Source: Patescibacteria group bacterium (lineage in GTDB: Bacteria; Patescibacteriota; Kazan-3B-28). Taken from it: DNA of 64,000 bases. The stretch spans positions 3,311 through 67,310 of the forward strand of contig JAWKSK010000002.1 in NCBI GenBank assembly GCA_041389145.1, written 5' to 3'. This document shows positions 2,995 through 54,083 of the stretch, piece after piece (the stretch's first letter is position 1; each line of letters opens with the position of its first letter). Both the position numbers and the translations under genes were made by a program. The notes beneath the pieces were generated by a model. That model saw only the letters and a list, made by a program, of their open reading frames with translations. It searched no databases and was not told the origin of the DNA.

Positions 2995-4569
2995 ATGCTT
3001 AAAAAGCTAATCAATAGAACTTCTACTTTAAAAGAGGCAGCTGCTGTACTAGCAGTTGCTTCTTTGGTTAGTCGTTTGTTTGGAGTGGTAAGGGATAGCG
3101 TAATTGCATCCCATTATGCTGGAGATATATCAGATGCATATTTAGCTGCATTTGTTATCCCAGACTTCATCTTTAATCTTTTGATATTAGGGGCACTGTC
3201 TTCCGCTTTCATTCCAATCTTTACTGGTTATTTGAAGAGGAATGGAGAAGGTAATGATGAAGCTTGGGCACTGGTGAATACGTTGGTAAATGTCGGGGTG
3301 GTAGGTTTGGCCGTGGTGTTACTGGGTGGTGTGATGGCAGCACCGGTTTTAGTAAAGTTTGTTGCTCCGGGATTTGATCCAGGAAAACAAGAAATGGTGA
3401 TTATGATGATGAGAATAATGTTCTTATCTCCATTGTTCTTTGGTTTGAGTAACCTGGCTGGTGGAATCTTAAACTCATTTAAAAACTTCTTAGCTTACTC
3501 GTTAGCCCCAATTTTGTATAACGTGGGTATTATTGTGGGAGCTATCTACTTGGTTCCAATGATGGGATATATTGGTTTGGCATATGGTGTTGTGTTGGGT
3601 GCGTTGATGCATATGTTAATCCAACTGCCAGGAGTATTTAGTTTGGGGTATAAGTATCGGATGCATATAGATTTTAGACATCCGGCATTGAAACGGATGG
3701 CGGTGCTAATGATCCCAAGAACATTAGGGGTAGGGGTGGTGCAGGTAAATACAATTATTAACACGGCAATTGCATCTACATTGGCAGGTGGTGCGGTTTC
3801 GGTATTTAAATGGGCAGATAATCTGCAGAGCGTACCAATTGGAATTTTTGGTGTGTCATTTGCAGTGGCAGTGTTCCCAACCTTAGCGGAAAAATATAGC
3901 TTGCAAAAAATAGGGGAGTTTAGAGAAGACGTGGTGGCAGTTTTGCGGCAGATCTCATTCTTTGTGATTCCTTCGATGATGTTGTATTGGATATTACGTG
4001 CTCAGATTGTGAGACTGGTGTTGGGGTACGGTGCTTTTGACTGGGAGTTTACTAGGTTTACGGTATCAACACTGGCATTCTTCACCTTCGGTATGCTGGC
4101 TCAGTCGGTAATCCATTTATTGGCAAGATCGTTCTATGCATTGCATGACACCAAAACTCCACTGCTTGTTAGTTTGGGTGTGGTGTTAATTAATGCTGGG
4201 TTAGCATGGGAGTTATCACGATACTGGGGAGTTATTGGATTGGCAGGAGCAATTTCGATATCTGCCACAATTAATGCCGTGGTATTGTTTGGATTGTTGG
4301 CAAAAAGGTTAGGGGGTATGCCATGGTCTGAAATATTTGGATATTTAGGCAGAGTGATTTTGGCTAGCTTGGGAATGGGTGCAGTTGCTTACACGATGTT
4401 GAGGGTAGTTGATTTGATAGTGGTAACCCATACGTTTGTAGGTATTTTAAGTCAGACATTAATTACAGTATTGGTTGCAATCTTTGCCTACTTGGCGATG
4501 GCCAAACTATTAGCACTACCAGAAATGCAAATGATTGTGGGTCCGATTAGACGGATGGTTAGGAAATAA
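2995..4569 (+). CDS. murJ: Lipid II flippase MurJ (MviN)
   Basis: 524-aa polytopic membrane protein with MurJ-like N-terminus (AAAVLAVASLVSRLFGVVRD...AFIPIFT). Confidence 0.85.
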   Translation: MLKKLINRTSTLKEAAAVLAVASLVSRLFGVVRDSVIASHYAGDISDAYLAAFVIPDFIFNLLILGALSSAFIPIFTGYLKRNGEGNDEAWALVNTLVNVGVVGLAVVLLGGVMAAPVLVKFVAPGFDPGKQEMVIMMMRIMFLSPLFFGLSNLAGGILNSFKNFLAYSLAPILYNVGIIVGAIYLVPMMGYIGLAYGVVLGALMHMLIQLPGVFSLGYKYRMHIDFRHPALKRMAVLMIPRTLGVGVVQVNTIINTAIASTLAGGAVSVFKWADNLQSVPIGIFGVSFAVAVFPTLAEKYSLQKIGEFREDVVAVLRQISFFVIPSMMLYWILRAQIVRLVLGYGAFDWEFTRFTVSTLAFFTFGMLAQSVIHLLARSFYALHDTKTPLLVSLGVVLINAGLAWELSRYWGVIGLAGAISISATINAVVLFGLLAKRLGGMPWSEIFGYLGRVILASLGMGAVAYTMLRVVDLIVVTHTFVGILSQTLITVLVAIFAYLAMAKLLALPEMQMIVGPIRRMVRK

Positions 4570-4601
4570 AAAAACCTTCCTCGATGGGGCTTCGAGGAAG
4601 G
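4568..4601. terminator. Hairpin between convergent genes; the T-run is on the minus strand (terminator for 4628-5161, possibly bidirectional)
   Basis: aaaaaa ccttcctcga tggggc tcgaggaagg: perfect 10-bp stem flanked by an A-run on plus (U-run on minus). Confidence 0.5.
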
Positions 4602-4627
4602 CGGTCAACTGATCCATTGACCAGTGG

Positions 4628-5161
4628 TCACTCATCGTTGGCCTGTGGAATGGTACAGGTCATCGTGAGTAGTTGGTTGGGGTATCCTTTGTCATAGGCA
4701 ACAGCATGTTTTAATGCTGTGTTGAGCATGGCACCATCACCCCTGGGAAGAATTAGGATCATCTCTATCCACCTGCTGGTTTCTTCTTCCCATGAATGCC
4801 ATTGCTTGATAGCAAGGTATCCAGTGTTACCGTCGTATTTCTGGATGGTGATGCCACCCTTTGTACAGCGGTAGGTTTTGGGGTCACCGAAGATTGATAC
4901 TTTGACGTACTTGCCGTCGTAAGTCATCTGTTCGATTGCCCCATGGACTACAGGTGTCCAGAAATTTCTCTCGGGCAACTGCGCGCTGCCTTTGCCATCC
5001 AGGAAGTCCTGGAGGATGGAGGTTTCGGCTGGGTCGGTGTTGTACTCTTCCCAGGCGACATTGATTCTTCTGCCATAGGCAGAAGCAGCAATAAGGATCA
5101 CAATGAAGATGATCCACTTGATTGTTCTGCTCTTGGGTCTTCTGACCTTTGAACCTCTCAT
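4628..5161 (-). CDS. Hypothetical membrane-anchored/secreted protein
   Basis: Start trimmed to MRGSKVRRPK because of an AAGGGG RBS about 8 nt upstream. Basic N-tail then TM (WIIFIVILIAASAYG). Visibly higher G+C than neighbours. No recognisable family. Confidence 0.45.
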   Translation of the reverse strand: MRGSKVRRPKSRTIKWIIFIVILIAASAYGRRINVAWEEYNTDPAETSILQDFLDGKGSAQLPERNFWTPVVHGAIEQMTYDGKYVKVSIFGDPKTYRCTKGGITIQKYDGNTGYLAIKQWHSWEEETSRWIEMILILPRGDGAMLNTALKHAVAYDKGYPNQLLTMTCTIPQANDE

Positions 5162-5331
5162 TAGATTTCCCCTTTGCTTCCACCCAGTTCCTGGGTAGGG
5201 AAGCGATAATCTCAACCCTTTTGAAAGTTCATTGGTAGTGCTAGAATTGCATTACCAATCTCGCTTTGATTATACACTAATTATTGGTTCTTGTCAATGA
5301 AAATCCGCTCTGGTACACTGTTTTTAAGGAT

Positions 5332-14212: not shown

Positions 14213-15865
14213 ATGTTTAGTCGTTCAGCACAGAGATTTTGGGAAATTTTACCAGGTTTAACTACCTGGTCGATTTTAATATTGCCAGTTATTCTATCGA
14301 TTTTTTTTCCGGAAGGATTGGCATATTTCATTATTGTTTTTGATGTTTACTGGTTAACTAACGCCTTAATATTTGGAGGTCATCTGTGGTCTGGATTTAT
14401 TCATATGAAGCGAGCCATGAAAATAGATTGGCTGGAACGGTTGCATAAGACAGATAACTTGCAGGCTTGGTCTGATGAACTTAAGGCTAAGTTATTAGGT
14501 TTACGGGGTTTTGAAGCACGTAAGGTACATGAGGAATGGGAAGAGGTAGAAGCAATATTGAGACTTCCTGAAACCCAGAAGTCATGGCGGGAAGTGGTGC
14601 ATTCCGTAATTTATGCAATATATAAAGAGAGCTACGAAGTGGTAACTGCTTCGGTGCAGGCATGTTTAGCTACTAATTATCCAAAGGATAGGATAATGCT
14701 GGTATTGGCATTAGAAGAGAGGGCAGGTGAGGAGGCAGTGAAGATGGCGAATCGAATAAAAGAAGAATACGGAGATCAATTCTTTGATGTCTTGATTACT
14801 GTTCATCCAGATGGAATCGTAGGCGAAATTAAAGCCAAGGGAGCTAATGTATATCACGCAGGTCAGGAGTTAAAGAAGTATGTAGATGAGCATCAAATGG
14901 ATTATGAGGATGTGATGGTGTCTTGTTTTGACGCAGATACACTGCCAAGTCGTCAGTACTTTGCCAATCTGACTTATAAATATGTAATTAATCCGGAAAG
15001 AACCTATCGGAGTTATCAGCCAATCCCATTATTTAATAACAACATGTGGGATGTTCCAATGATGAATAGGCTAGTAGCTTTTGGTTCTTCCTATTGGCAG
15101 ATTATTGAGTCTACTCGTCCGTATCGACTTGTTAATTTCTCTTCACAAGCAATGAGTTTGAAGACCTTGGTAGAGATTGATTTTTGGGACAAGAGTGTGG
15201 TATCAGAGGATTCAAAGCAGTATTACCGGGCATATTATCACTATCATGGTAACCACAAAGTTGTTCCAATCTTTGCACCAGTATCAATGGATGCAGTGAT
15301 GGGTAAAAACTATTGGGACACAATGAAGGCCCAGTATATCCAAAAGCGGAGATGGGCATGGGGGATTGAGCATCTTCCATATGTAATGGAGAAGTTCTTC
15401 TCAAAGAGGGGAATCATGACTTTTTATGAAAGAGCTATTCACCCGTATAGAATATATGTAGGACATGTAGCATGGGCTACATCGTCACTGTTGATTGCAT
15501 TGGGTGCATGGATGCCAGTGTGGTTGAATGCGGACTTTAGAAGCTCAATCCTGGCATATCATCTACCAGTTCTTGCCCGTGATTTATTAAGTATTACCTG
15601 GGTAGGTATTGCTCTTCAGGCAATTATTGCAATGCAATTGTTGCCACCAAGACCAGACCATCATGGGATTGGTAAGAATATTGAGATGATTTTGATGTGG
15701 ATTCTAATGCCAATATCTGGAATATTGTTTGGATCATTGGCAGCAATTGATGCTGAAACGAGATTGATGTTTGGAAGATATCTGGGTTTTCATGTAACTG
15801 CAAAAGAGCGTAAAAGTACGATTGATCACCATCGGGTGGATATTACTTCGGTTAAGAACTCTTAA
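14213..15865 (+). CDS. Membrane-embedded family-2 glycosyltransferase (cellulose/chitin/hyaluronan-synthase-like processive GT)
   Basis: DxD motif CFDADTL and Q(R/Q)xRW motif QKRRWAWG, flanked by multiple TM helices. Confidence 0.75.
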   Translation: MFSRSAQRFWEILPGLTTWSILILPVILSIFFPEGLAYFIIVFDVYWLTNALIFGGHLWSGFIHMKRAMKIDWLERLHKTDNLQAWSDELKAKLLGLRGFEARKVHEEWEEVEAILRLPETQKSWREVVHSVIYAIYKESYEVVTASVQACLATNYPKDRIMLVLALEERAGEEAVKMANRIKEEYGDQFFDVLITVHPDGIVGEIKAKGANVYHAGQELKKYVDEHQMDYEDVMVSCFDADTLPSRQYFANLTYKYVINPERTYRSYQPIPLFNNNMWDVPMMNRLVAFGSSYWQIIESTRPYRLVNFSSQAMSLKTLVEIDFWDKSVVSEDSKQYYRAYYHYHGNHKVVPIFAPVSMDAVMGKNYWDTMKAQYIQKRRWAWGIEHLPYVMEKFFSKRGIMTFYERAIHPYRIYVGHVAWATSSLLIALGAWMPVWLNADFRSSILAYHLPVLARDLLSITWVGIALQAIIAMQLLPPRPDHHGIGKNIEMILMWILMPISGILFGSLAAIDAETRLMFGRYLGFHVTAKERKSTIDHHRVDITSVKNS

Positions 15866-16493
15866 TCGTTTTCTCGATAAAGAAGTGTGATTTTGAATTG
15901 GCTAGTTTAAGTAGTTCTAAGTTGGCTGGTAAAACTTCTTTTGGGCTGTAATCACTAAGGTTTCCCCAGAAGGAATTTTTTAGTTTGCCAGTTGGGTGAT
16001 GCCCAACGAAAACGTGGGCTAACATTTGGCTAACTAATTCGTCCTGTTCGTAAACGGTAATGTAGGAATCACCGATGTGATTTAAATCGGCTTTAATGCC
16101 GGTTTTTTCTTTTAGTTCTCGATTGGCAGCTGTAAGGATGGATTCACCTAAATGAATTTTACCGTACGGAAAACCTATTAAATCGATAAAGGGTTGTTTT
16201 TGGCGTTGGTATAAGAGCTGTTGCCCGTCTTCGTTAAAAACGATGATAAGGGTAACGATTTTAGGTTGGATTCTGGGTTGAAAACTTTTAAGGCTTAATT
16301 TATCAGCGAATGCCTTGCCGGTAGGGGTGAGGTGGTAGTGGTCATTGGTTTTGGTAACTAAGTTTTTTGAAATTAGTTTTTTGAGGTAATACATAAAATG
16401 ATTACCTTCTACAGTAAGGGGTTTGATGTCCCTGTATCTGGCTTTGTTTTTGTGGACGAGAATACTTAAGATGTGGTTTTCGATTTTGTGCAT
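15852..16493 (-). CDS. Nudix hydrolase with N-terminal winged-helix domain (NrtR-like architecture, reversed domain order)
   Basis: Nudix box GKIHLGESILTAANRELKEKTGI. N-terminal 65 aa look like a winged helix (ILSILVHKNKARYRDIKPLT...YYLKKLISKNLV). Confidence 0.7.
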   Translation of the reverse strand: MHKIENHILSILVHKNKARYRDIKPLTVEGNHFMYYLKKLISKNLVTKTNDHYHLTPTGKAFADKLSLKSFQPRIQPKIVTLIIVFNEDGQQLLYQRQKQPFIDLIGFPYGKIHLGESILTAANRELKEKTGIKADLNHIGDSYITVYEQDELVSQMLAHVFVGHHPTGKLKNSFWGNLSDYSPKEVLPANLELLKLANSKSHFFIEKTIKSS

Positions 16494-16681
16494 GTGAATA
16501 TTATATATGAATTTGACTCAAAATGTTTTGACTAGAGAGTAAGTTTTATCGTAGATATTATTAGGTTGGTTTTGAACCTTACATTGTGGCGAGGATGACA
16601 TGGATAAGCAGAAGCTTGTCGGAATAGGTGGTCCAATTCCTGCCGAACTATTATCTGAACTTCACAAGTTAGAGGAGGAGT

Positions 16682-17806
16682 ATGAAGACGAACGTGGAGA
16701 GGGAGAACAGGTGGATGGTTCTCGAATGGGATCAGCAAACTGTGTTGGGCTCATGTGAACCGGTCACTATCGTACAAGGCTTTCTTCCTGGGCATGAATA
16801 TGTTCGGGTTCGTCTTGTCTTTGACGTGAATAACAAATTCGTGAAGGCATCTCTGGACCGAAAGTCTGGATGGGGTCATGATCGCAAGGAGGCTACTTGT
16901 CCCTTGGGGGAACAGGAGGCGTCTGTATTACTACGGAGCTGCGGTCATCGTGTGATCAACAAGCTACGTTACACACTTAACCAAGACAATGGTGTAGAAG
17001 AGAGCTTGGACATCTACGATGGTGTGCTGGTTCCCTTTGGCCTGGTCAAGTTTGAACGAGAAGGTAGTCTTGATGAAAGTCTTCCTCTCGGGATACACGA
17101 TGCAGTCAAGGTTACCAACACCGTTTCAGACCAACAGCTGGCTGAGCTCTGTGAAGAGATTCAGCTTGGGATGTGGGAAGGAGTTGGTCCTGAAGTTCTT
17201 ATGGAGCAAATCCTGGATCCGATCAGGACAACAGTGATAACCGGTCCACCTGGATCGGGAAAAACTTCGGTGCTCAAGGTGCTAAAGACAGCAATGGGGC
17301 ATCAGATTCATTTCCTGGATGAGGTTGCCAGAATGGTGATCACTGGCTGTAACTGTCCTGTCCCGATTGATTTTCCAAGCGAGATGAAACGATTTGAGCG
17401 GTTGGTGATGTCAACTCAACAAACGGTTCACAAGTTTGGCTTGCAGAGGGCGAGGCTGGCTGGGAAAAAGATTCTGGTTTCTGACCGGTTTCTGGACCCT
17501 GTGGCATATCTAGGACCAGGTCTGAATCGTGGGCAGAAAGAGACCATCTTACGGGTGAATATTGGGTATGAACTGTCCAAGATTTACCAGGTTATTGTTC
17601 TGTTGCTGCCAGACAGAGAGACCTATGAGAGATATCAGTCTCAGGATGATGCACGGTCTGAGTCTTATGATGAGGCTCTATTGATCCAGGAATGGATTCT
17701 GGATGTCTACTCATCCCATCCCAATCTACTGACTGTCAATCCGGTCGCTGAAGGTCAACTTGATGCCAAGTTTGATCTCGTACGCAGGGCTATTGTTGGA
17801 GAGTAG
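16682..17806 (+). CDS. CYTH-like (triphosphate tunnel) domain fused to an AAA_28/NadR-type P-loop kinase domain
   Basis: Strong RBS gaggaggagtATG. N-terminus shows the CYTH pattern (VERENRW..., YVRVRL, INKLRY, LVKFERE). C-terminus has Walker A GPPGSGKTS plus DRFLDPVAY and YQVIVLLLPD signatures of NadR ribosylnicotinamide-kinase-like AAA_28. Higher G+C than flanks. Confidence 0.6.
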   Translation: MKTNVERENRWMVLEWDQQTVLGSCEPVTIVQGFLPGHEYVRVRLVFDVNNKFVKASLDRKSGWGHDRKEATCPLGEQEASVLLRSCGHRVINKLRYTLNQDNGVEESLDIYDGVLVPFGLVKFEREGSLDESLPLGIHDAVKVTNTVSDQQLAELCEEIQLGMWEGVGPEVLMEQILDPIRTTVITGPPGSGKTSVLKVLKTAMGHQIHFLDEVARMVITGCNCPVPIDFPSEMKRFERLVMSTQQTVHKFGLQRARLAGKKILVSDRFLDPVAYLGPGLNRGQKETILRVNIGYELSKIYQVIVLLLPDRETYERYQSQDDARSESYDEALLIQEWILDVYSSHPNLLTVNPVAEGQLDAKFDLVRRAIVGE

Positions 17807-17821
17807 AAAATGGTCATAATT

Positions 17822-17849
17822 ACCGCCCCCTCGGGGGCGGCTTTTTTTA
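17822..17849 (+). terminator. Rho-independent terminator
   Basis: ccgccccc tc gggggcgg followed by cttttttta. Confidence 0.7.
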
Positions 17850-17863
17850 TCTGAAAATAGGTG

Positions 17864-17892
17864 TTGACATAGGATGTAGGGGTCTGTATTCT
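17864..17892 (+). promoter_or_regulatory. Probable rRNA promoter
   Basis: TTGACA-17 nt-TATTCT about 240 nt upstream of the mature 16S 5' end. Confidence 0.55.
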
Positions 17893-18129
17893 AGTACTTG
17901 CAAAATTAATCTTTTAAAACGAGGTGAATTTGGAGCGAAAGCTTCATAGACGGGTGCAAAATATTGCAGCTGTTTTTACATCATTCTAGCGATTGATTTT
18001 ACGCCCTTTTCCAATCAGTAAGTACTTAGATATCCTTTAGAGTTAATTATTTTTGGGCTTACTTATTAAGTAAGCTAACAGTTGGAATCATCCGGACGCC
18101 TATTTATAGGTGTCACGGTTTCAACTTTT

Positions 18130-19594
<1,465 letters not shown>

Positions 19595-19790: not shown

Positions 19791-20201
19791 TTAGCGCCAG
19801 TAGCCGATAATGGCTGCCATGGCGATGAGGGAAACCAACCAGTATCCTGCGTTTATGAACCAATATGTCCAAGGTTTTTGTTCCCAAGTGACTGCACCCA
19901 TGGTGATAGGCACAAAGAAGCCTAACCATGCCCAGAATGCGGTTGAGATGGCGCTCTGGACAGTGATTTCAATCCCGAAGCCTTGGGCTGCGAGATAAAT
20001 GAAGTGGGAGAGGATGTAGGCCATTAGGAAGCCTGTGATGATCATAAGAACCCAGCTGATAACTGGTGTGTTCTTCATATTCACATTGGCAATCTTGGAC
20101 CAGTAATCACCAAAAACTTTAGGAGAATACCAAATAGATCCAATGACCATATTAGAAACCACGGCTGCTAGAATTGCTAGATAGTTTACAGGAATATCCA
20201 T
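19791..20201 (-). CDS. Small polytopic membrane protein (DUF1761-like)
   Basis: 136 aa, four TM helices, motif IGSIWYSPKVFGDYW resembles DUF1761 proteins. Confidence 0.45.
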   Translation of the reverse strand: MDIPVNYLAILAAVVSNMVIGSIWYSPKVFGDYWSKIANVNMKNTPVISWVLMIITGFLMAYILSHFIYLAAQGFGIEITVQSAISTAFWAWLGFFVPITMGAVTWEQKPWTYWFINAGYWLVSLIAMAAIIGYWR

Positions 20202-20279: not shown

Positions 20280-20356
20280 TGGTGGACCTGCGGGGATTCG
20301 AACCCCGGACCCCCTGCTTGCAAAGCAGGTGCTCTAGCCAACTGAGCTACAGGCCC
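20280..20356 (-). tRNA. tRNA-Ala(TGC)
   Basis: GGGCCTGTAGCTCAGTTGGCTAGAGCACCTGCTTTGCAAGCAGGGGGTCCGGGGTTCGAATCCCCGCAGGTCCACCA with a G3-U70 pair. Confidence 0.9.
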
Positions 20357-20696: not shown

Positions 20697-20773
20697 GGGC
20701 ATATAGCTCAGCTGGTTAGAGCGCAGTCCTGATAAGACTGAGGTCCCTGGTTCGAATCCAGGTATGCCCACCA
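20697..20773 (+). tRNA. tRNA-Ile(GAT)
   Basis: GGGCATATAGCTCAGCTGGTTAGAGCGCAGTCCTGATAAGACTGAGGTCCCTGGTTCGAATCCAGGTATGCCCACCA. Confidence 0.9.
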
Positions 20774-21414: not shown

Positions 21415-22164
21415 ATGGCAGAAATCAAAACTACAGGAATTGTTATCAAAAAGACAGATCTGGGAGAAGCGGATAGATTATTAACTGTCCTATCTTCAGA
21501 TTTAGGTAAGGTGAAGGTAGTGGGTAAAGGGATTAGAAGACCCAAAGCAAAGCTGTCTGCTTGGTTAGATATGTTTAGATACAATCATCTAACCCTGGCT
21601 AAGGGTAAGACATTTTATATTGCTACAGGCGCTCAGACCGAGGAGCTGCTACTCAAGGAAGGAATGGATTGGGATCGCTTAGCGGTTGGTTATTACCTGT
21701 GTGAATTGCTGGATAAGAACGTAGAGGAACATCAGGAGCTTCCGGGCTTATTTGAATTGTTAAGAGAATCACTAATGGATTTAGGTCAAGGAGAGGTATC
21801 TGAGCTGCTGATTAGAGCGAGCTTTGAATTAAAGTTTTTAGAATTGTTAGGGGTTAGTCCAGAACTTGAAAGGTGTGTGGTGACTGAAGCGGAGCTGAAT
21901 GTAGAACAGCAATACTTCTTTAGTATGCGAATGGGTGGAGTGGTAAGCCAGGAGGGTATACACCGGGATGATTTCGCCAGACAGGTGGGTGTGAATGAAA
22001 TAAAGATGATGCGAGTGTTGCGTCAGTATCCAGTTACAGCAGTGGCCAAGATTAAGGTAGAGAGTGAGGTAATAGAAAAAACAGCCCTATGTATATCGGA
22101 CTTTGTGGCACACGTTCTAGAGGCAAGAACTAAATCAATGAAGGTTAGCGAAGCAATAGCTTAG
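21415..22164 (+). CDS. recO: DNA repair protein RecO
   Basis: N-terminal OB-fold signature GIVIKKTDLGEADRLLTVLS...G; about 250 aa. Confidence 0.7.
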   Translation: MAEIKTTGIVIKKTDLGEADRLLTVLSSDLGKVKVVGKGIRRPKAKLSAWLDMFRYNHLTLAKGKTFYIATGAQTEELLLKEGMDWDRLAVGYYLCELLDKNVEEHQELPGLFELLRESLMDLGQGEVSELLIRASFELKFLELLGVSPELERCVVTEAELNVEQQYFFSMRMGGVVSQEGIHRDDFARQVGVNEIKMMRVLRQYPVTAVAKIKVESEVIEKTALCISDFVAHVLEARTKSMKVSEAIA

Positions 22165-23081
22165 CGTTTACGACGGCCATGAAAAGCCGTGTGGACTTCT
22201 TTGAGTTGCTTGTTGGTGATATGGGTGTAGACCTGGGTAGTGGTTATCGAGGAGTGTCCCAGGAGGGACTGTACCGATCTAATATCGGCTCCATTAATGA
22301 GCAAGTCGGTAGCATATGAGTGTCTAAGTGTGTGAGGGGTAACCTGTTTTACAATGCCTGCCAGAGTGGCATATTTTTGAATAATACGCTGAACGGTTCG
22401 AGGTGTAATTGGCTTATATGTTTCTGTGGTTCCGTGGGAGATGAATACGTGTTCATTGTCATCTCTGCGTTTATTTAGATAGTTGGCCAAATGGAGTTTG
22501 GCATCATTGGAAAGGAAGACAATTCTAGGTTTTTGACCCTTACCTCTAACAGAAAACTCACCTCGTTTGAGATTGATTTTTTCTTTGGTGAGATTAACTA
22601 GTTCAGATACACGCAGGCCAGTTGAATAGAGGGTGTGAAGGATTGCGGTATCACGGAGGTCTTGGAGGGTGTTGGTTTGGGGTACGGCATTGAATAAATC
22701 ATGAACCTCATTGGCTTCAAGGTAATCGACAATGCGTTGGGGAGTTTTAGCTAGTTCGACTTTCTCAGGAGCTAGGCTCTTGATATCATCCTTAGCTAGG
22801 AATTTTAAGAATGCACGGAGAGCGATGATATGGTAGTTCTGAGTAACTGGTTTTAACTCATTGCCATGTTCGTCGACATAGCGGTTTAAGAATTTGCGAT
22901 ACTTATGAACAAGTGGGAGATCGATTTGGATAGGGGTGAGGCCAGAGTGTCCTTCTTCAATTGCAAATTCTAAAAAGCGACTTAGGTAATGGTTGTAGTT
23001 CTCTAAGGTTTTATTACTCCGGTTACGTTCAATCTCAAGATAATCTAGGAAATCTTGGATGTGGGTTTTTACGGTTGCCAT
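22161..23081 (-). CDS. Tyrosine site-specific recombinase, XerC/XerD family
   Basis: Catalytic signature R...HTLRHSYATDLLINGADIRSVQSLLGHSSITTTQVYTH; about 300 aa. XerC and XerD are indistinguishable by eye. Confidence 0.85.
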   Translation of the reverse strand: MATVKTHIQDFLDYLEIERNRSNKTLENYNHYLSRFLEFAIEEGHSGLTPIQIDLPLVHKYRKFLNRYVDEHGNELKPVTQNYHIIALRAFLKFLAKDDIKSLAPEKVELAKTPQRIVDYLEANEVHDLFNAVPQTNTLQDLRDTAILHTLYSTGLRVSELVNLTKEKINLKRGEFSVRGKGQKPRIVFLSNDAKLHLANYLNKRRDDNEHVFISHGTTETYKPITPRTVQRIIQKYATLAGIVKQVTPHTLRHSYATDLLINGADIRSVQSLLGHSSITTTQVYTHITNKQLKEVHTAFHGRRKR

Positions 23082-49388: not shown

Positions 49389-49503
49389 TTGGTTTTTCTG
49401 TGGAGCTGTGGTTAACTGTTTGGGTTAAGGAAATTATTATTGGGGGTGTACCTTGGCTAACAAGGGAAGTCCACAGCGTCCATTCTGTGCCAAGCTTGAT
49501 GCA

Positions 49504-50391
49504 ATGATTGGCAAGAAGATCCAGGTCTTAGACCATGGATACATTCGGCTTGTTGACTACATGGGTGTACAGGCCAGCGTAGCTCAAGCTGCCAGGGTTT
49601 CCTATCAGAAGGGAACCAGAAGGACTAGCGAGGATGTTGGTCTGGTTCGTAGGTTATATCGTGATCGTCACACGAGTCCATTGGAACAGCTTGTGATTAC
49701 GTTTGATCTGCGGATGCCAATCTTCGTGATGAGACAGTGGGTTCGACATCGAACTGCTCGTCTGAACGAAGAATCTGCTCGGTATTCTGAACTGGAGTCC
49801 ATTTTCTATCTCCCCAAGAGAGAGAGGATGGTGAGTCAGTCCAAGAAGAACAAGCAGGGAGGAGGTAAACTGCTCGATGATGCAGTTGCCGATCATATTG
49901 CTCAGCTGTTGCTGGGTGGGCAGGATGCGGCAGCTCGTGATTATGCAGAAATGATTAGGGCAGATTACGCCAGGGAGTTGGCACGGATCAACTTGCCACT
50001 CTCAATCTACACGAGAGTGAGGTGGCAGATTGATCTGCACAACCTTCTTCACTTCCTGTCACTGAGAAATGATCCTCATGCCCAGTATGAAATCAGGGTC
50101 TACGCCGAGCTCATTTACGAGAAGTATCTGAAGATCTGGGTGCCTGACATCTGTAGGGCATTTGAGGACCACACGCTCAAGTCTCTCCGCTATTCATTCA
50201 TTGACCAGCAAGTCGTGGAATGGGCAAGGAAGGAGTATTCTGGTGGAAACTGGGTTGATTCTCTGAGGCTGGTGCTGGCAGCCAATCCCAAGGATGAGGA
50301 TTCTCAGTTGTTCAGGCTGGCTAAGCAGTTCAATGTCAGTCCTGGTGAGATTAGCGAGCTGTTATCGAAGCTTGTCTTTCTCGAGAGTTAG
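49504..50391 (+). CDS. thyX: Flavin-dependent thymidylate synthase ThyX
   Basis: ThyX signature RHRTARLNEESARY (RHR-x7-S-x-RY); N-terminus MIGKKIQVLDHGYIRLVDYMG matches ThyX starts. In-frame TTG at 49453 is possible. GC-rich. Confidence 0.85.
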   Translation: MIGKKIQVLDHGYIRLVDYMGVQASVAQAARVSYQKGTRRTSEDVGLVRRLYRDRHTSPLEQLVITFDLRMPIFVMRQWVRHRTARLNEESARYSELESIFYLPKRERMVSQSKKNKQGGGKLLDDAVADHIAQLLLGGQDAAARDYAEMIRADYARELARINLPLSIYTRVRWQIDLHNLLHFLSLRNDPHAQYEIRVYAELIYEKYLKIWVPDICRAFEDHTLKSLRYSFIDQQVVEWARKEYSGGNWVDSLRLVLAANPKDEDSQLFRLAKQFNVSPGEISELLSKLVFLES

Positions 50392-53399: not shown

Positions 53400-54083
53400 G
53401 TGAGTAATAAGGAGAAGGCTGTGTTTTCTAACATGTTGTATGAACTCAGGTACTTCCTGGGCAAGAACTGGCCGATTGTCAGCGTGATTGCTCTTGGGGT
53501 GATCCTGTTCTTCACCCAGAGCACGTGGATGCCGATGGTGGAAATGATGTCAAAGCCGACCGCGGCACATGCTCAGGCCAGCGTTGACACTGGAGCTCAG
53601 AGTCTGATGGCCGAGATGGCTGCAAACCCGGATGACCCCAACTTCGGCGGAGGTGCTGTGAGTAGCCCTGATGATTCAAGCGTGCCAGCCAAGGGTGGAC
53701 GGGTGAATGCTTCTGACCTGACACCATGTCGCAATCAGCCAGTTATGGGTTCAGAGCTGGGTCCTGCCTATCTTGGTGCCAACGTTCAACTTCCAGCTAC
53801 CATTAACCGTATCAGTTCCGATACTATCTTCTTCAAGTGTAGCGGTGATATAGCCAGCAAGGTTGAATACGATGGTTTGTACTATGTGCAAATCATGGAC
53901 GAACCGGTGAAGTGGGCGGGGTCCAGTTCCTATGGTTCGGCGGCAGTGGCTCGGCCATGTGAAGTGAAGAAGGTGCGGGGTGGCGTTGAATGTACTCTGG
54001 TTGGAATGGAGCGAGGCAAGTCCTACCTGATACCAGATGCGGCATCTAACACCAGCTCAAGAGCCTACCTGGTTCGCAAGTAG
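53400..54083 (+). CDS. Hypothetical secreted/membrane-anchored protein, strongly GC-rich
   Basis: 227 aa; N-terminal TM/signal anchor (WPIVSVIALGVILFF); four Cys; G+C clearly above all surrounding genes (about 55-58% by eye). Confidence 0.45.
   Translation: MSNKEKAVFSNMLYELRYFLGKNWPIVSVIALGVILFFTQSTWMPMVEMMSKPTAAHAQASVDTGAQSLMAEMAANPDDPNFGGGAVSSPDDSSVPAKGGRVNASDLTPCRNQPVMGSELGPAYLGANVQLPATINRISSDTIFFKCSGDIASKVEYDGLYYVQIMDEPVKWAGSSSYGSAAVARPCEVKKVRGGVECTLVGMERGKSYLIPDAASNTSSRAYLVRK

Follow-up and report, generated by a model that had tools for sequence, protein, structure and literature searches.

The window analysed here is a 64,000-nucleotide stretch of the genome of a Patescibacteria group bacterium (GTDB lineage Kazan-3B-28; assembly GCA_041389145.1, contig JAWKSK010000002.1, positions 3,311 to 67,310 of the forward strand). 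It contains a complete gene at 16682..17806 (+; positions counted from the first letter of the window) that encodes an N-terminal triphosphate-tunnel (CYTH/TTM) domain fused to a C-terminal AAA_28 P-loop kinase domain. In the clade formed by this protein and its closest ortholog, two active-site residues of the tunnel that most relatives share are replaced. We tentatively favour the reading that the protein is a salvage-type kinase whose N-terminal triphosphate-binding tunnel is non-canonical in this clade, being either regulatory or of altered chemistry, and that the gene is controlled by a divergently encoded protein with a winged helix-turn-helix (wHTH) and a Nudix domain. The domain superfamilies themselves are known; as far as the literature and databases were searched, the bacterial architecture, the clade-specific rewiring of metal site 1 and the Nudix/palindrome module are undescribed.

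A tunnel domain and a kinase domain in one reading frame

A preliminary description, made from the sequence and a list of its open reading frames (ORFs), had proposed a CYTH domain of about 190 amino acids (aa) joined to a NadR-type AAA_28 kinase domain. The ORF is single and uninterrupted and encodes 374 aa from an ATG start, the stop codon being included in its coordinates. All motifs on which the proposal was based were found in the translation, namely VERENRW (residues 5-11), YVRVRL (40-45), INKLRY (92-97) and LVKFERE (121-127) in the N-terminal half, and GPPGSGKTS (188-196), DRFLDPVAY (268-276) and YQVIVLLLPD (302-311) in the C-terminal half. Homologs of the same length align with the protein end to end, as expected of one gene rather than of two ORFs separated by a frameshift.

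Searches of the single sequence against Pfam recovered only one of the two domains. AAA_28 (PF13521) matched residues 185-351 above the gathering threshold (E 3.1e-13; 50.7 bits vs a cutoff of 27; profile positions 3-154 of 164), whereas CYTH (PF01928) matched neither the whole protein nor its N-terminal half, even at E ≤ 10. The CYTH model did match 8 of 15 sequences in an alignment of mostly stand-alone relatives (best E 6.8e-9) and 2 of 16 fused relatives. When a profile of 30 N-domain sequences was compared with PDB, the inorganic triphosphatase NeuTTM of Nitrosomonas europaea (NE1496; 2FBL/3TYP) was matched over its full length with E 2e-30, at an identity of about 24% to the N-domain studied here. 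A hidden Markov model (HMM) built without this protein and its ortholog scored the protein at 113.7 bits and NeuTTM at 109.0 bits.

An AlphaFold prediction from the single sequence was discarded because of its low confidence (predicted local distance difference test, pLDDT, 33). With an 18-sequence family alignment the model reached a pLDDT of 89.5 over both domains and a predicted TM-score (pTM) of 0.80. In Foldseek searches of PDB with this model, NeuTTM chains ranked first for the barrel (probability 1.00, TM-score about 0.63 normalised by target length) and P-loop kinases were the matches of the C-terminal domain. The N-terminal half was thereby confirmed, by sequence profile and predicted fold, as a triphosphate-tunnel domain, although a shorter one than first proposed: the NeuTTM-like domain, with the predicted strand and helix pattern of a beta-barrel, spans residues 1-165 (16682..17176, +) and leads into a helical linker of residues about 166-180 (17177..17221, +; predicted helices at 150-161 and 170-178). 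The AAA_28 nucleoside/nucleotide-kinase-like domain, recognised with Pfam, Foldseek and hhalign, occupies residues 181-374 (17222..17803, +). The proposed fusion is therefore a true one, with both halves backed by profile and predicted fold.

The wider family was collected with an exhaustive phmmer search of residues 1-178 against 1.84 billion cluster representatives, which returned 32 hits, about 30 of them true relatives; P0003 and P0028 are eukaryotic repeat proteins and were judged spurious from their sequences. Sixteen hits were proteins of 353-391 aa that align with the target end to end, and AAA_28 was found by Pfam in 16/16 fused relatives scanned. The remaining relatives were proteins of 150-290 aa, some of them clear fragments, and one Ham1+CYTH fusion. 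Further fused members are P0033, P0034 and eight GTDB loci with full-length matches, the latter from Parcubacteria, Nealsonbacteria, Paceibacterota, two Gammaproteobacteria metagenome-assembled genomes (MAGs), one Planctomycetia MAG, one Acutalibacteraceae MAG and one unclassified bacterium. The GTDB scan covered one genome per species and used a pattern from a 6-member sub-alignment, the 16-member alignment being too divergent; since it samples one peptide pattern of the P-loop flank, its phyletic list is a lower bound. In total, about 25 relatives of the same length came to light; most belong to Patescibacteria, and a small number are from MAGs of Gammaproteobacteria, Planctomycetia and Firmicutes. 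When 5.8 billion proteins were queried by word-indexed search, using the whole protein, the N-terminal half or the family alignment, almost nothing but the gene itself was returned.

The family has no NCBIfam model, and the clusters checked were singletons or nearly so and carried no name. Within the literature that was searchable, no paper contained both 'CYTH' and 'AAA_28', and no name or curated model was found for the architecture. Tandems of a TTM and a kinase have been treated as unique to plants (PMC9582702), in keeping with the rarity that the preliminary description had claimed for such fusions. Sequence comparison thus showed that CYTH plus AAA_28 is a rare, unnamed bacterial family of shared architecture. 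Other tunnel fusions were seen among the relatives: P0021 (360 aa) carries a Ham1/ITPase domain with CYTH, and P0035 (579 aa) combines CYTH with a PRK domain of the uridine-kinase type, an architecture like that of plants.

Tunnel and kinase active sites

It was previously shown that the first glutamate of a tunnel strand (Glu-169 in AtTTM3, Glu-160 in ygiF) acts with the triphosphate to complete the coordination sphere of metal 1, that this residue is described as invariant among characterised TTMs and its mutation strongly lowers the activity of AtTTM3 and ygiF, and that metal site 2 is formed by the second glutamate of the strand and the N-terminal ExE pair (PMC4641920). For NeuTTM, a catalytic dyad of Tyr-28 and Lys-52 has been proposed (PMC3440374). 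We tabulated the corresponding positions over 30 family N-domains, and MAFFT and an independent hmmalign run agreed on the mapping to NeuTTM (F34 = Tyr-28, K61 = Lys-52, K123 = Glu-114, E125 = Glu-116).

Ten residues were invariant in all 30 N-domains: E6, E8, R42, R44, K61, R68, E70, K94, R96 and E125. The ExExK-type motif E6-R-E8-N-R10 (16697..16711, +), placed by the NeuTTM alignment and the column counts, has arginine at position 10, as do 25 of the 30 sequences, with lysine in the other 5. The protein resembles NeuTTM in the ExEx[K/R], RxR and KxR motifs, the dyad lysine, the metal-2 glutamate and a C-terminal 'N..LA' helix. It differs from NeuTTM, a stand-alone protein of about 150 aa, in being fused to a kinase and in the two residues that replace Glu-114 and Tyr-28. 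The first of these lies in the strand K123-F-E125-R-E127 (17048..17062, +), on which both alignments agree. Position 123, which corresponds to the metal-1 glutamate (NeuTTM E114, AtTTM3 E169, ygiF E160), is lysine only in this protein and its ortholog P0002 and glutamate in 28/30 N-domains, whereas the metal-2 glutamate E125 on the same strand is retained. The second is codon 34 (16781..16783, +), which encodes phenylalanine in the target and ortholog only, with isoleucine in one more member and tyrosine in 27/30; the dyad lysine is thus kept and its tyrosine replaced. Both orthologs also have a glutamate at position 127 ('KFERE'), a residue found there in 6 of the 30 N-domains.

These comparisons showed that the target clade keeps the basic lining expected to bind triphosphate (R10, R42, R44, K61, R68, K94 and R96) and the acidic patch of metal 2 (E6, E8, E70 and E125), whereas the usual ligand of metal 1 and the tyrosine of the dyad are gone. 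The acidic tunnel residues, whose conservation the preliminary description had singled out as a check, are therefore intact at one metal site and changed at the other. The tunnels of most other members of the family have the full canonical set of residues and are probably real triphosphohydrolases. Because both substitutions are common to orthologs of 44% identity, and because the two domains are about equally conserved between them (43.8% identity in the N-domain and 46.9% in the C-domain), the combination of K123 and F34 speaks for a derived state that has been maintained, and against decay.

The C-terminal domain carries the Walker A motif (P-loop) GPPGSGKT at residues 188-195 (17243..17266, +), in which G188 and K194 were invariant in 18/18 family members. 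The motif D268-R269-F-L-D272 (17483..17497, +), which we take to resemble the 'DRY' motif of thymidylate kinases (TMPKs), was similarly conserved (D272 invariant, R269 in 17/18 and D268 in 16/18). E214, which follows strand 2, and the LID-like R325 and E327 were, as R269, each present in 17 of the 18. The catalytic apparatus was thus shown to be intact by residue conservation (Walker A K194/T195, E214, D268-R269..D272 and R325/E327), and the domain is probably catalytically competent.

Its affinity within the P-loop kinases is less specific than the term 'NadR-type' had implied. E. coli NadR belongs to the same Pfam family (AAA_28, E 1.9e-30) and a NadR structure (8X7F) was among the Foldseek matches of the domain, so that the assignment held at family level. 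The relation is not close, however: hhalign against the ribosylnicotinamide kinase domain of E. coli NadR gave a probability of 93.7% over NadR residues 231-357 at 18% identity, NadR has a 'DT' motif where the family studied here has the TMPK-like 'DR', and Pfam found neither an HTH nor an NMNAT domain in the target, unlike in E. coli NadR (HTH_3 and CTP_transf_like). The best structural matches were TMPKs, including 5H70 (cPPK3 homolog), followed by deoxynucleoside kinases (dNKs), adenylate kinase, shikimate kinases and NadR (E 6e-6 to 7e-5 for TMPK, dNK, adenylate kinase and NadR). When PDB was searched with a sequence profile of this domain, only generic P-loop kinases (adenylate and thymidylate kinases) were reached. 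No PRK match was found by Pfam in the target protein. A reading as part of a defence system was rejected, PADLOC having returned just noise at the level of the P-loop.

Divergent regulator gene, proposed function and alternatives

The neighbouring gene, 15852..16493 (-), is divergent from the fusion gene and encodes a putative regulator of 213 aa in which a winged HTH domain (Pfam HTH_45, E 7e-5, residues 32-66) precedes a Nudix domain (Pfam NUDIX, E 1.2e-13, residues 80-187). Among solved structures, it is most closely related to ADP-ribose pyrophosphatases and a NadM-Nudix enzyme. In its Nudix box (REUxEK), the second glutamate of the catalytic 'EE' pair is replaced by lysine, as it is in a homolog from a Saccharibacteria genome ('REIQEK'). 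The protein was kept beside the ortholog of the fusion gene (55% identity). In the Saccharibacteria genome (L027), the homolog (33% identity) is divergent from a stand-alone AAA_28 protein of 200 aa that belongs to the same family as the kinase domain studied here.

The intergenic region between the divergent genes contains a perfect 11-bp palindrome, TTTGACTCAAA (16512..16522), a candidate operator that is unique in the window (0.07 copies expected). Its consensus form, TTTGA-S-TCAAA (TTTGASTCAAA), recurs as a single copy at the corresponding position in the locus of the ortholog (L001, 5636-5646) and in L027 (3733-3743); each of the three regulator-bearing loci thus has it close to the regulator start, and it occurred in 0/26 other loci. 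Copies with one mismatch occurred at chance frequency, and no wider regulon was visible in the 64-kb window. NrtR proteins are Nudix-related transcriptional regulators of NAD metabolism (PMC2330246), and the neighbour resembles them in joining an ADP-ribose-pyrophosphatase-like Nudix domain to a winged HTH and in being divergent from the gene of a salvage-type kinase, the two genes being separated by a region that holds the unique palindrome. It is unlike them in that its domain order is reversed (Nudix N-terminal and wHTH C-terminal in NrtR), and its operator and effector are putative. By analogy, these features suggest that the wHTH-Nudix protein is an NrtR-like regulator and the palindrome its candidate operator. 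The association supports a link of the kinase, not necessarily of the tunnel, to nucleotide or ADP-ribose-type sensing.

In the function that we tentatively favour, the protein would consist of a NeuTTM-like tunnel, a short helical linker and an AAA_28 P-loop kinase. The kinase would be an active, ATP-dependent enzyme acting on a nucleoside- or nucleotide-like small molecule and would serve salvage in a salvage-dependent organism. The tunnel would still bind a ligand bearing a triphosphate, such as tripolyphosphate (PPPi), short polyphosphate (polyP) or a nucleoside triphosphate, and would have abandoned canonical two-metal hydrolysis in this clade. It may bind a ligand for the kinase or regulate it, a role that has been proposed for the tunnel of the plant protein AtTTM1, or it may be a hydrolase whose chemistry has changed, with lysine standing in for metal 1. 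Expression would probably be governed by the divergent wHTH-Nudix protein through TTTGACTCAAA, in analogy to the ADP-ribose-sensing NrtR regulators.

The only characterised proteins with both a P-loop kinase and a tunnel domain are AtTTM1 and AtTTM2 of Arabidopsis; their tunnel has kept its basic residues, lacks metal-binding glutamates and has been proposed to regulate the kinase, and in AtTTM1 the inactive tunnel is docked into the acceptor site of the kinase (PMC9582702). The protein described here likewise combines a small-molecule P-loop kinase with a tunnel in one chain. It differs from AtTTM1/2 in the order of the domains (the kinase is N-terminal in plants and C-terminal here), in the type of kinase (UCK/PRK in plants, AAA_28 here) and in the changes at the metal site, which are Glu to Gln in plants and metal-1 Glu to Lys together with Tyr to Phe here. 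The plant proteins also have a C-terminal membrane anchor, whereas the C-terminal residues of the target lie inside the predicted kinase domain, which closes with a helix at residues 357-372 in the AlphaFold model. Since the plant cluster is described as plant-unique, the bacterial fusion is an independent one.

Several observations weigh against the function proposed above. A lysine that replaces a metal ligand can support catalysis in some enzyme families, so that a non-hydrolytic tunnel is unproven, and E127, which as judged from the sequence points to the same side of the strand, could provide metal 1 with a ligand again if the register shifted by two residues. The acceptor of the kinase cannot be inferred, given AAA_28 in Pfam, TMPKs as structural matches and NadR at 18% identity. 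The Nudix/operator association was seen in three loci only, and because the L027 kinase lacks a tunnel domain, it backs regulation of the kinase and not a role of the tunnel; moreover, the palindrome lies nearest to the start of the Nudix gene itself and may serve autoregulation only. Finally, no operon partner is conserved across the wider family, the neighbours of distant fused genes being mutually unrelated (thioredoxin/TrxB/LeuRS, an HD_4 hydrolase, an integrase or UppS).

The main rival reading is that of a fully bifunctional enzyme, whose tunnel hydrolyses or cyclises a triphosphorylated substrate while its kinase phosphorylates a related nucleoside or nucleotide, the two being coupled in salvage or signalling. 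We regard this as possible and rather less likely. All tabulated charged residues of the tunnel apart from positions 34 and 123, including the metal-2 patch and the dyad lysine, are conserved, the tunnel is fully canonical in 27/30 family N-domains, the N-domain is as conserved between the orthologs as the kinase domain, and Glu127 might compensate for K123. However, the glutamate replaced by K123 is the one described as invariant, and its mutation strongly cuts AtTTM3 and ygiF activity (PMC4641920); the tyrosine of the proposed NeuTTM dyad has been lost as well (PMC3440374); and in the sole TTM-kinase fusion studied structurally the tunnel is inactive (PMC9582702). Of the bifunctional enzyme claimed in the preliminary description, the two-domain fusion therefore stands, and a dual activity is uncertain in view of Lys123 and Phe34.

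A more specific version of the favoured reading holds that this is an independent bacterial tunnel/kinase module in which the tunnel has turned into a metal-1-independent sensor of triphosphate or short polyP that allosterically gates a salvage kinase, under an NrtR-like wHTH-Nudix repressor of reversed domain order bound at TTTGASTCAAA. In this full form we consider it unlikely. Still less probable is a kinase linked to polyP or PPPi, whose TMPK-like domain would, in the manner of PPK2 and PPK3, catalyse phosphotransfer between a nucleotide and PPPi or short polyP, with the tunnel holding or trimming the inorganic chain. PPK3 is an exapted TMPK paralog (PMC12995831), a derivation that fits TMPKs, including the cPPK3 homolog 5H70, as the best structural matches of the C-domain, and the relative of solved structure nearest to the tunnel is NeuTTM, an enzyme that hydrolyses PPPi specifically. 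Yet 5H70 is one of dozens of TMPK matches with similar scores, Pfam assigns the domain to AAA_28 and not to Thymidylate_kin or PPK2, and no ppx, ppk or CHAD gene was present beside the fused gene in the loci with annotated neighbours.

Studies of the tunnel/kinase pairing have been confined to plants; there it was called plant-unique, and the tunnel is apparently a regulatory pseudo-enzyme. The occurrence of the pairing in bacteria, in reverse order and with a different kinase family, shows that it arose more than once, which argues for a functional logic in which the sensing or hydrolysis of triphosphate or polyP is tied to the phosphorylation of a small molecule. The canonical tunnels of most family members and the K123/F34 tunnel of this clade offer natural 'before and after' variants that may shed light on how a tunnel enzyme becomes a sensor. 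If the tunnel is indeed a sensor, the protein would be part of a compact control circuit for nucleotide salvage in organisms that lack de novo synthesis of nucleotides or cofactors. In the salvage-dependent Patescibacteria, the Nudix-type regulator with which the gene is conservedly paired and the defined palindrome make up a small candidate regulon.

Inheritance, gene start and genomic setting

The closest relative of the fusion gene, P0002 (44% identity), lies on a contig of GCA_040384045.1 (L001, 6001-7128), and the two genomes share the gene order GrpE-like / DnaJ / 170-aa ORF / glycosyltransferase-like / wHTH-Nudix (-) / fused gene (+) / 16S rRNA (+). A complete bacterial 16S ribosomal RNA (rRNA) gene was identified with Rfam at 18128-19592 (+), 321 nt downstream of the fusion gene and thus beside it as first described. 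The 16S genes of the two genomes are 93.5% identical and the flanking proteins 55-74% identical. Because synteny and the 16S neighbour are the same at this degree of 16S divergence, the gene was already at this position in the ancestor shared by two clearly separate lineages, and the comparison showed that it has been inherited vertically in this Patescibacteria lineage.

The preliminary description had regarded the gene as horizontally acquired. Its elevated G+C content is real: 48.7% compared with a mean of 42.4% (standard deviation 2.9) for 54 other long ORFs (z = 2.2) and 38-40% in the immediate neighbours, with a G+C content at third codon positions (GC3) of 0.50 vs 0.39. It is not unique in the window, where three ORFs are equally or more GC-rich (48.8-53.2%), namely that of the flavin-dependent thymidylate synthase ThyX (49453-50391) and two without a Pfam match (4628-5215, -, and 53400-54083). 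The ortholog P0002 has a G+C content of 52.0% and a GC3 of 0.64, compared with 38-45% and about 0.39 in its neighbours. In all low-GC hosts of the family that were examined, the fused gene exceeded its flanks by 2.7 to 8.2 points (2.7 to 5.5 in members other than the target and ortholog), and in high-GC hosts the difference was -0.1 to +3.7 points. Since the ortholog is GC-rich too, the anomaly in composition is old and has been maintained. It might go back to an old transfer out of a GC-rich donor, followed by slow amelioration, or be caused by selection on composition or by a local effect near the rRNA promoter. A good match to a sigma-70-like promoter, TTGACA-17-TATTCT, is located at 17864-17892 between the terminator of the fusion gene and the 16S gene.

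That the gene is a recently acquired foreign one, carried as genomic-island cargo, is very improbable. Besides the G+C excess over its neighbours, such an origin would fit the patchy distribution of the family across phyla, with many members in high-GC genomes, and the self-contained expression signals, among them an intrinsic terminator. The latter, which had been noted in the preliminary description, was recovered by a terminator scan 17 nt past the stop codon as a hairpin of 7/7 G-C pairs, CCGCCCC-CTCG-GGGGCGG, then a T-run (CTTTTTTTAT; 17823..17850, +). Against a recent import stand the ortholog in the identical slot upstream of 16S, the degree of divergence of the 16S genes and flanking proteins, the absence of adjacent mobile-element genes, and a G+C excess that both lineages share and that other low-GC hosts show in milder form. 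The claim of horizontal acquisition thus lacks support as a recent event; an ancient transfer, into the ancestor of both lineages, may have taken place.

The least credible alternative is an annotation artefact. The NCBI record for exactly this locus (P0001) is a 284-aa 'ATP-binding protein' that starts at a GTG at codon 91 (16952), in which case the true gene would be an AAA_28 protein and its first 90 codons untranslated. These codons (16682-16951) encode the first half of the tunnel domain, and because the gene model omits them, the database record gives no sign of a CYTH domain. However, they hold seven of the invariant tunnel residues (E6, E8, R42, R44, K61, R68 and E70), and about 28 relatives found by phmmer align across them from query residues 1-10 onward, those of the same length from residues 1-6 to the C-terminus. 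In the AlphaFold model, a start at codon 91 would halve the beta-barrel. The pattern of G+C at the three codon positions (GC1/GC2/GC3) in codons 1-90 is the same as in the remainder of the gene, and the ortholog was called at 375 aa. The ATG at 16682 is also directly preceded by a Shine-Dalgarno-like GAGGAGGAG (16672..16680, +), which agrees with the strong ribosome binding site first described, whereas just GGAG, 13 nt away, is found upstream of the GTG. The short NCBI model is contradicted, and the long ATG start was shown by these sequence features to be the right gene start. With public annotation shortened and the tunnel domain missed by Pfam alone, the architecture is probably under-counted in databases.

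Further upstream of the gene, a promoter-like site with a weak consensus match (TAGAGA-17-TATTAT, 9/12 matches) is located at 16533..16561 (+), in a scan in which the count of sites equalled the chance expectation. Downstream of the 16S gene, no 23S gene was found anywhere in the 64-kb window, so that the rRNA operon looks unlinked or rearranged here; the 16S gene is followed by a DUF1761 gene (19791-20201, -), tRNA-Ala(TGC) (20280-20356, -) and tRNA-Ile(GAT) (20697-20773, +). In L001, too, the fused gene is immediately followed by 16S. Where the window has a single glycosyltransferase-like ORF of 550 aa (14213-15865), L001 has two overlapping ORFs (3133-4404 and 4401-4949; 423 + 182 aa), which reflects either a frameshift or assembly error in that genome or a real split.

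Among more distant family members, the convergent neighbour of the fused gene in Parcubacteria SG8_24 (L010, 5220-6056, -) encodes an HD_4 protein (RelA/SpoT-type hydrolase), a single instance that is not conserved. A tyrosine recombinase gene of the Phage_integrase family is located 4.4 kb downstream of the fusion gene beside recO (22161-23081, -), and a similar recombinase is encoded directly upstream of the fused gene in a Nealsonbacteria genome (L011, 2907-3866). Both are probably housekeeping genes of the XerC/D type.

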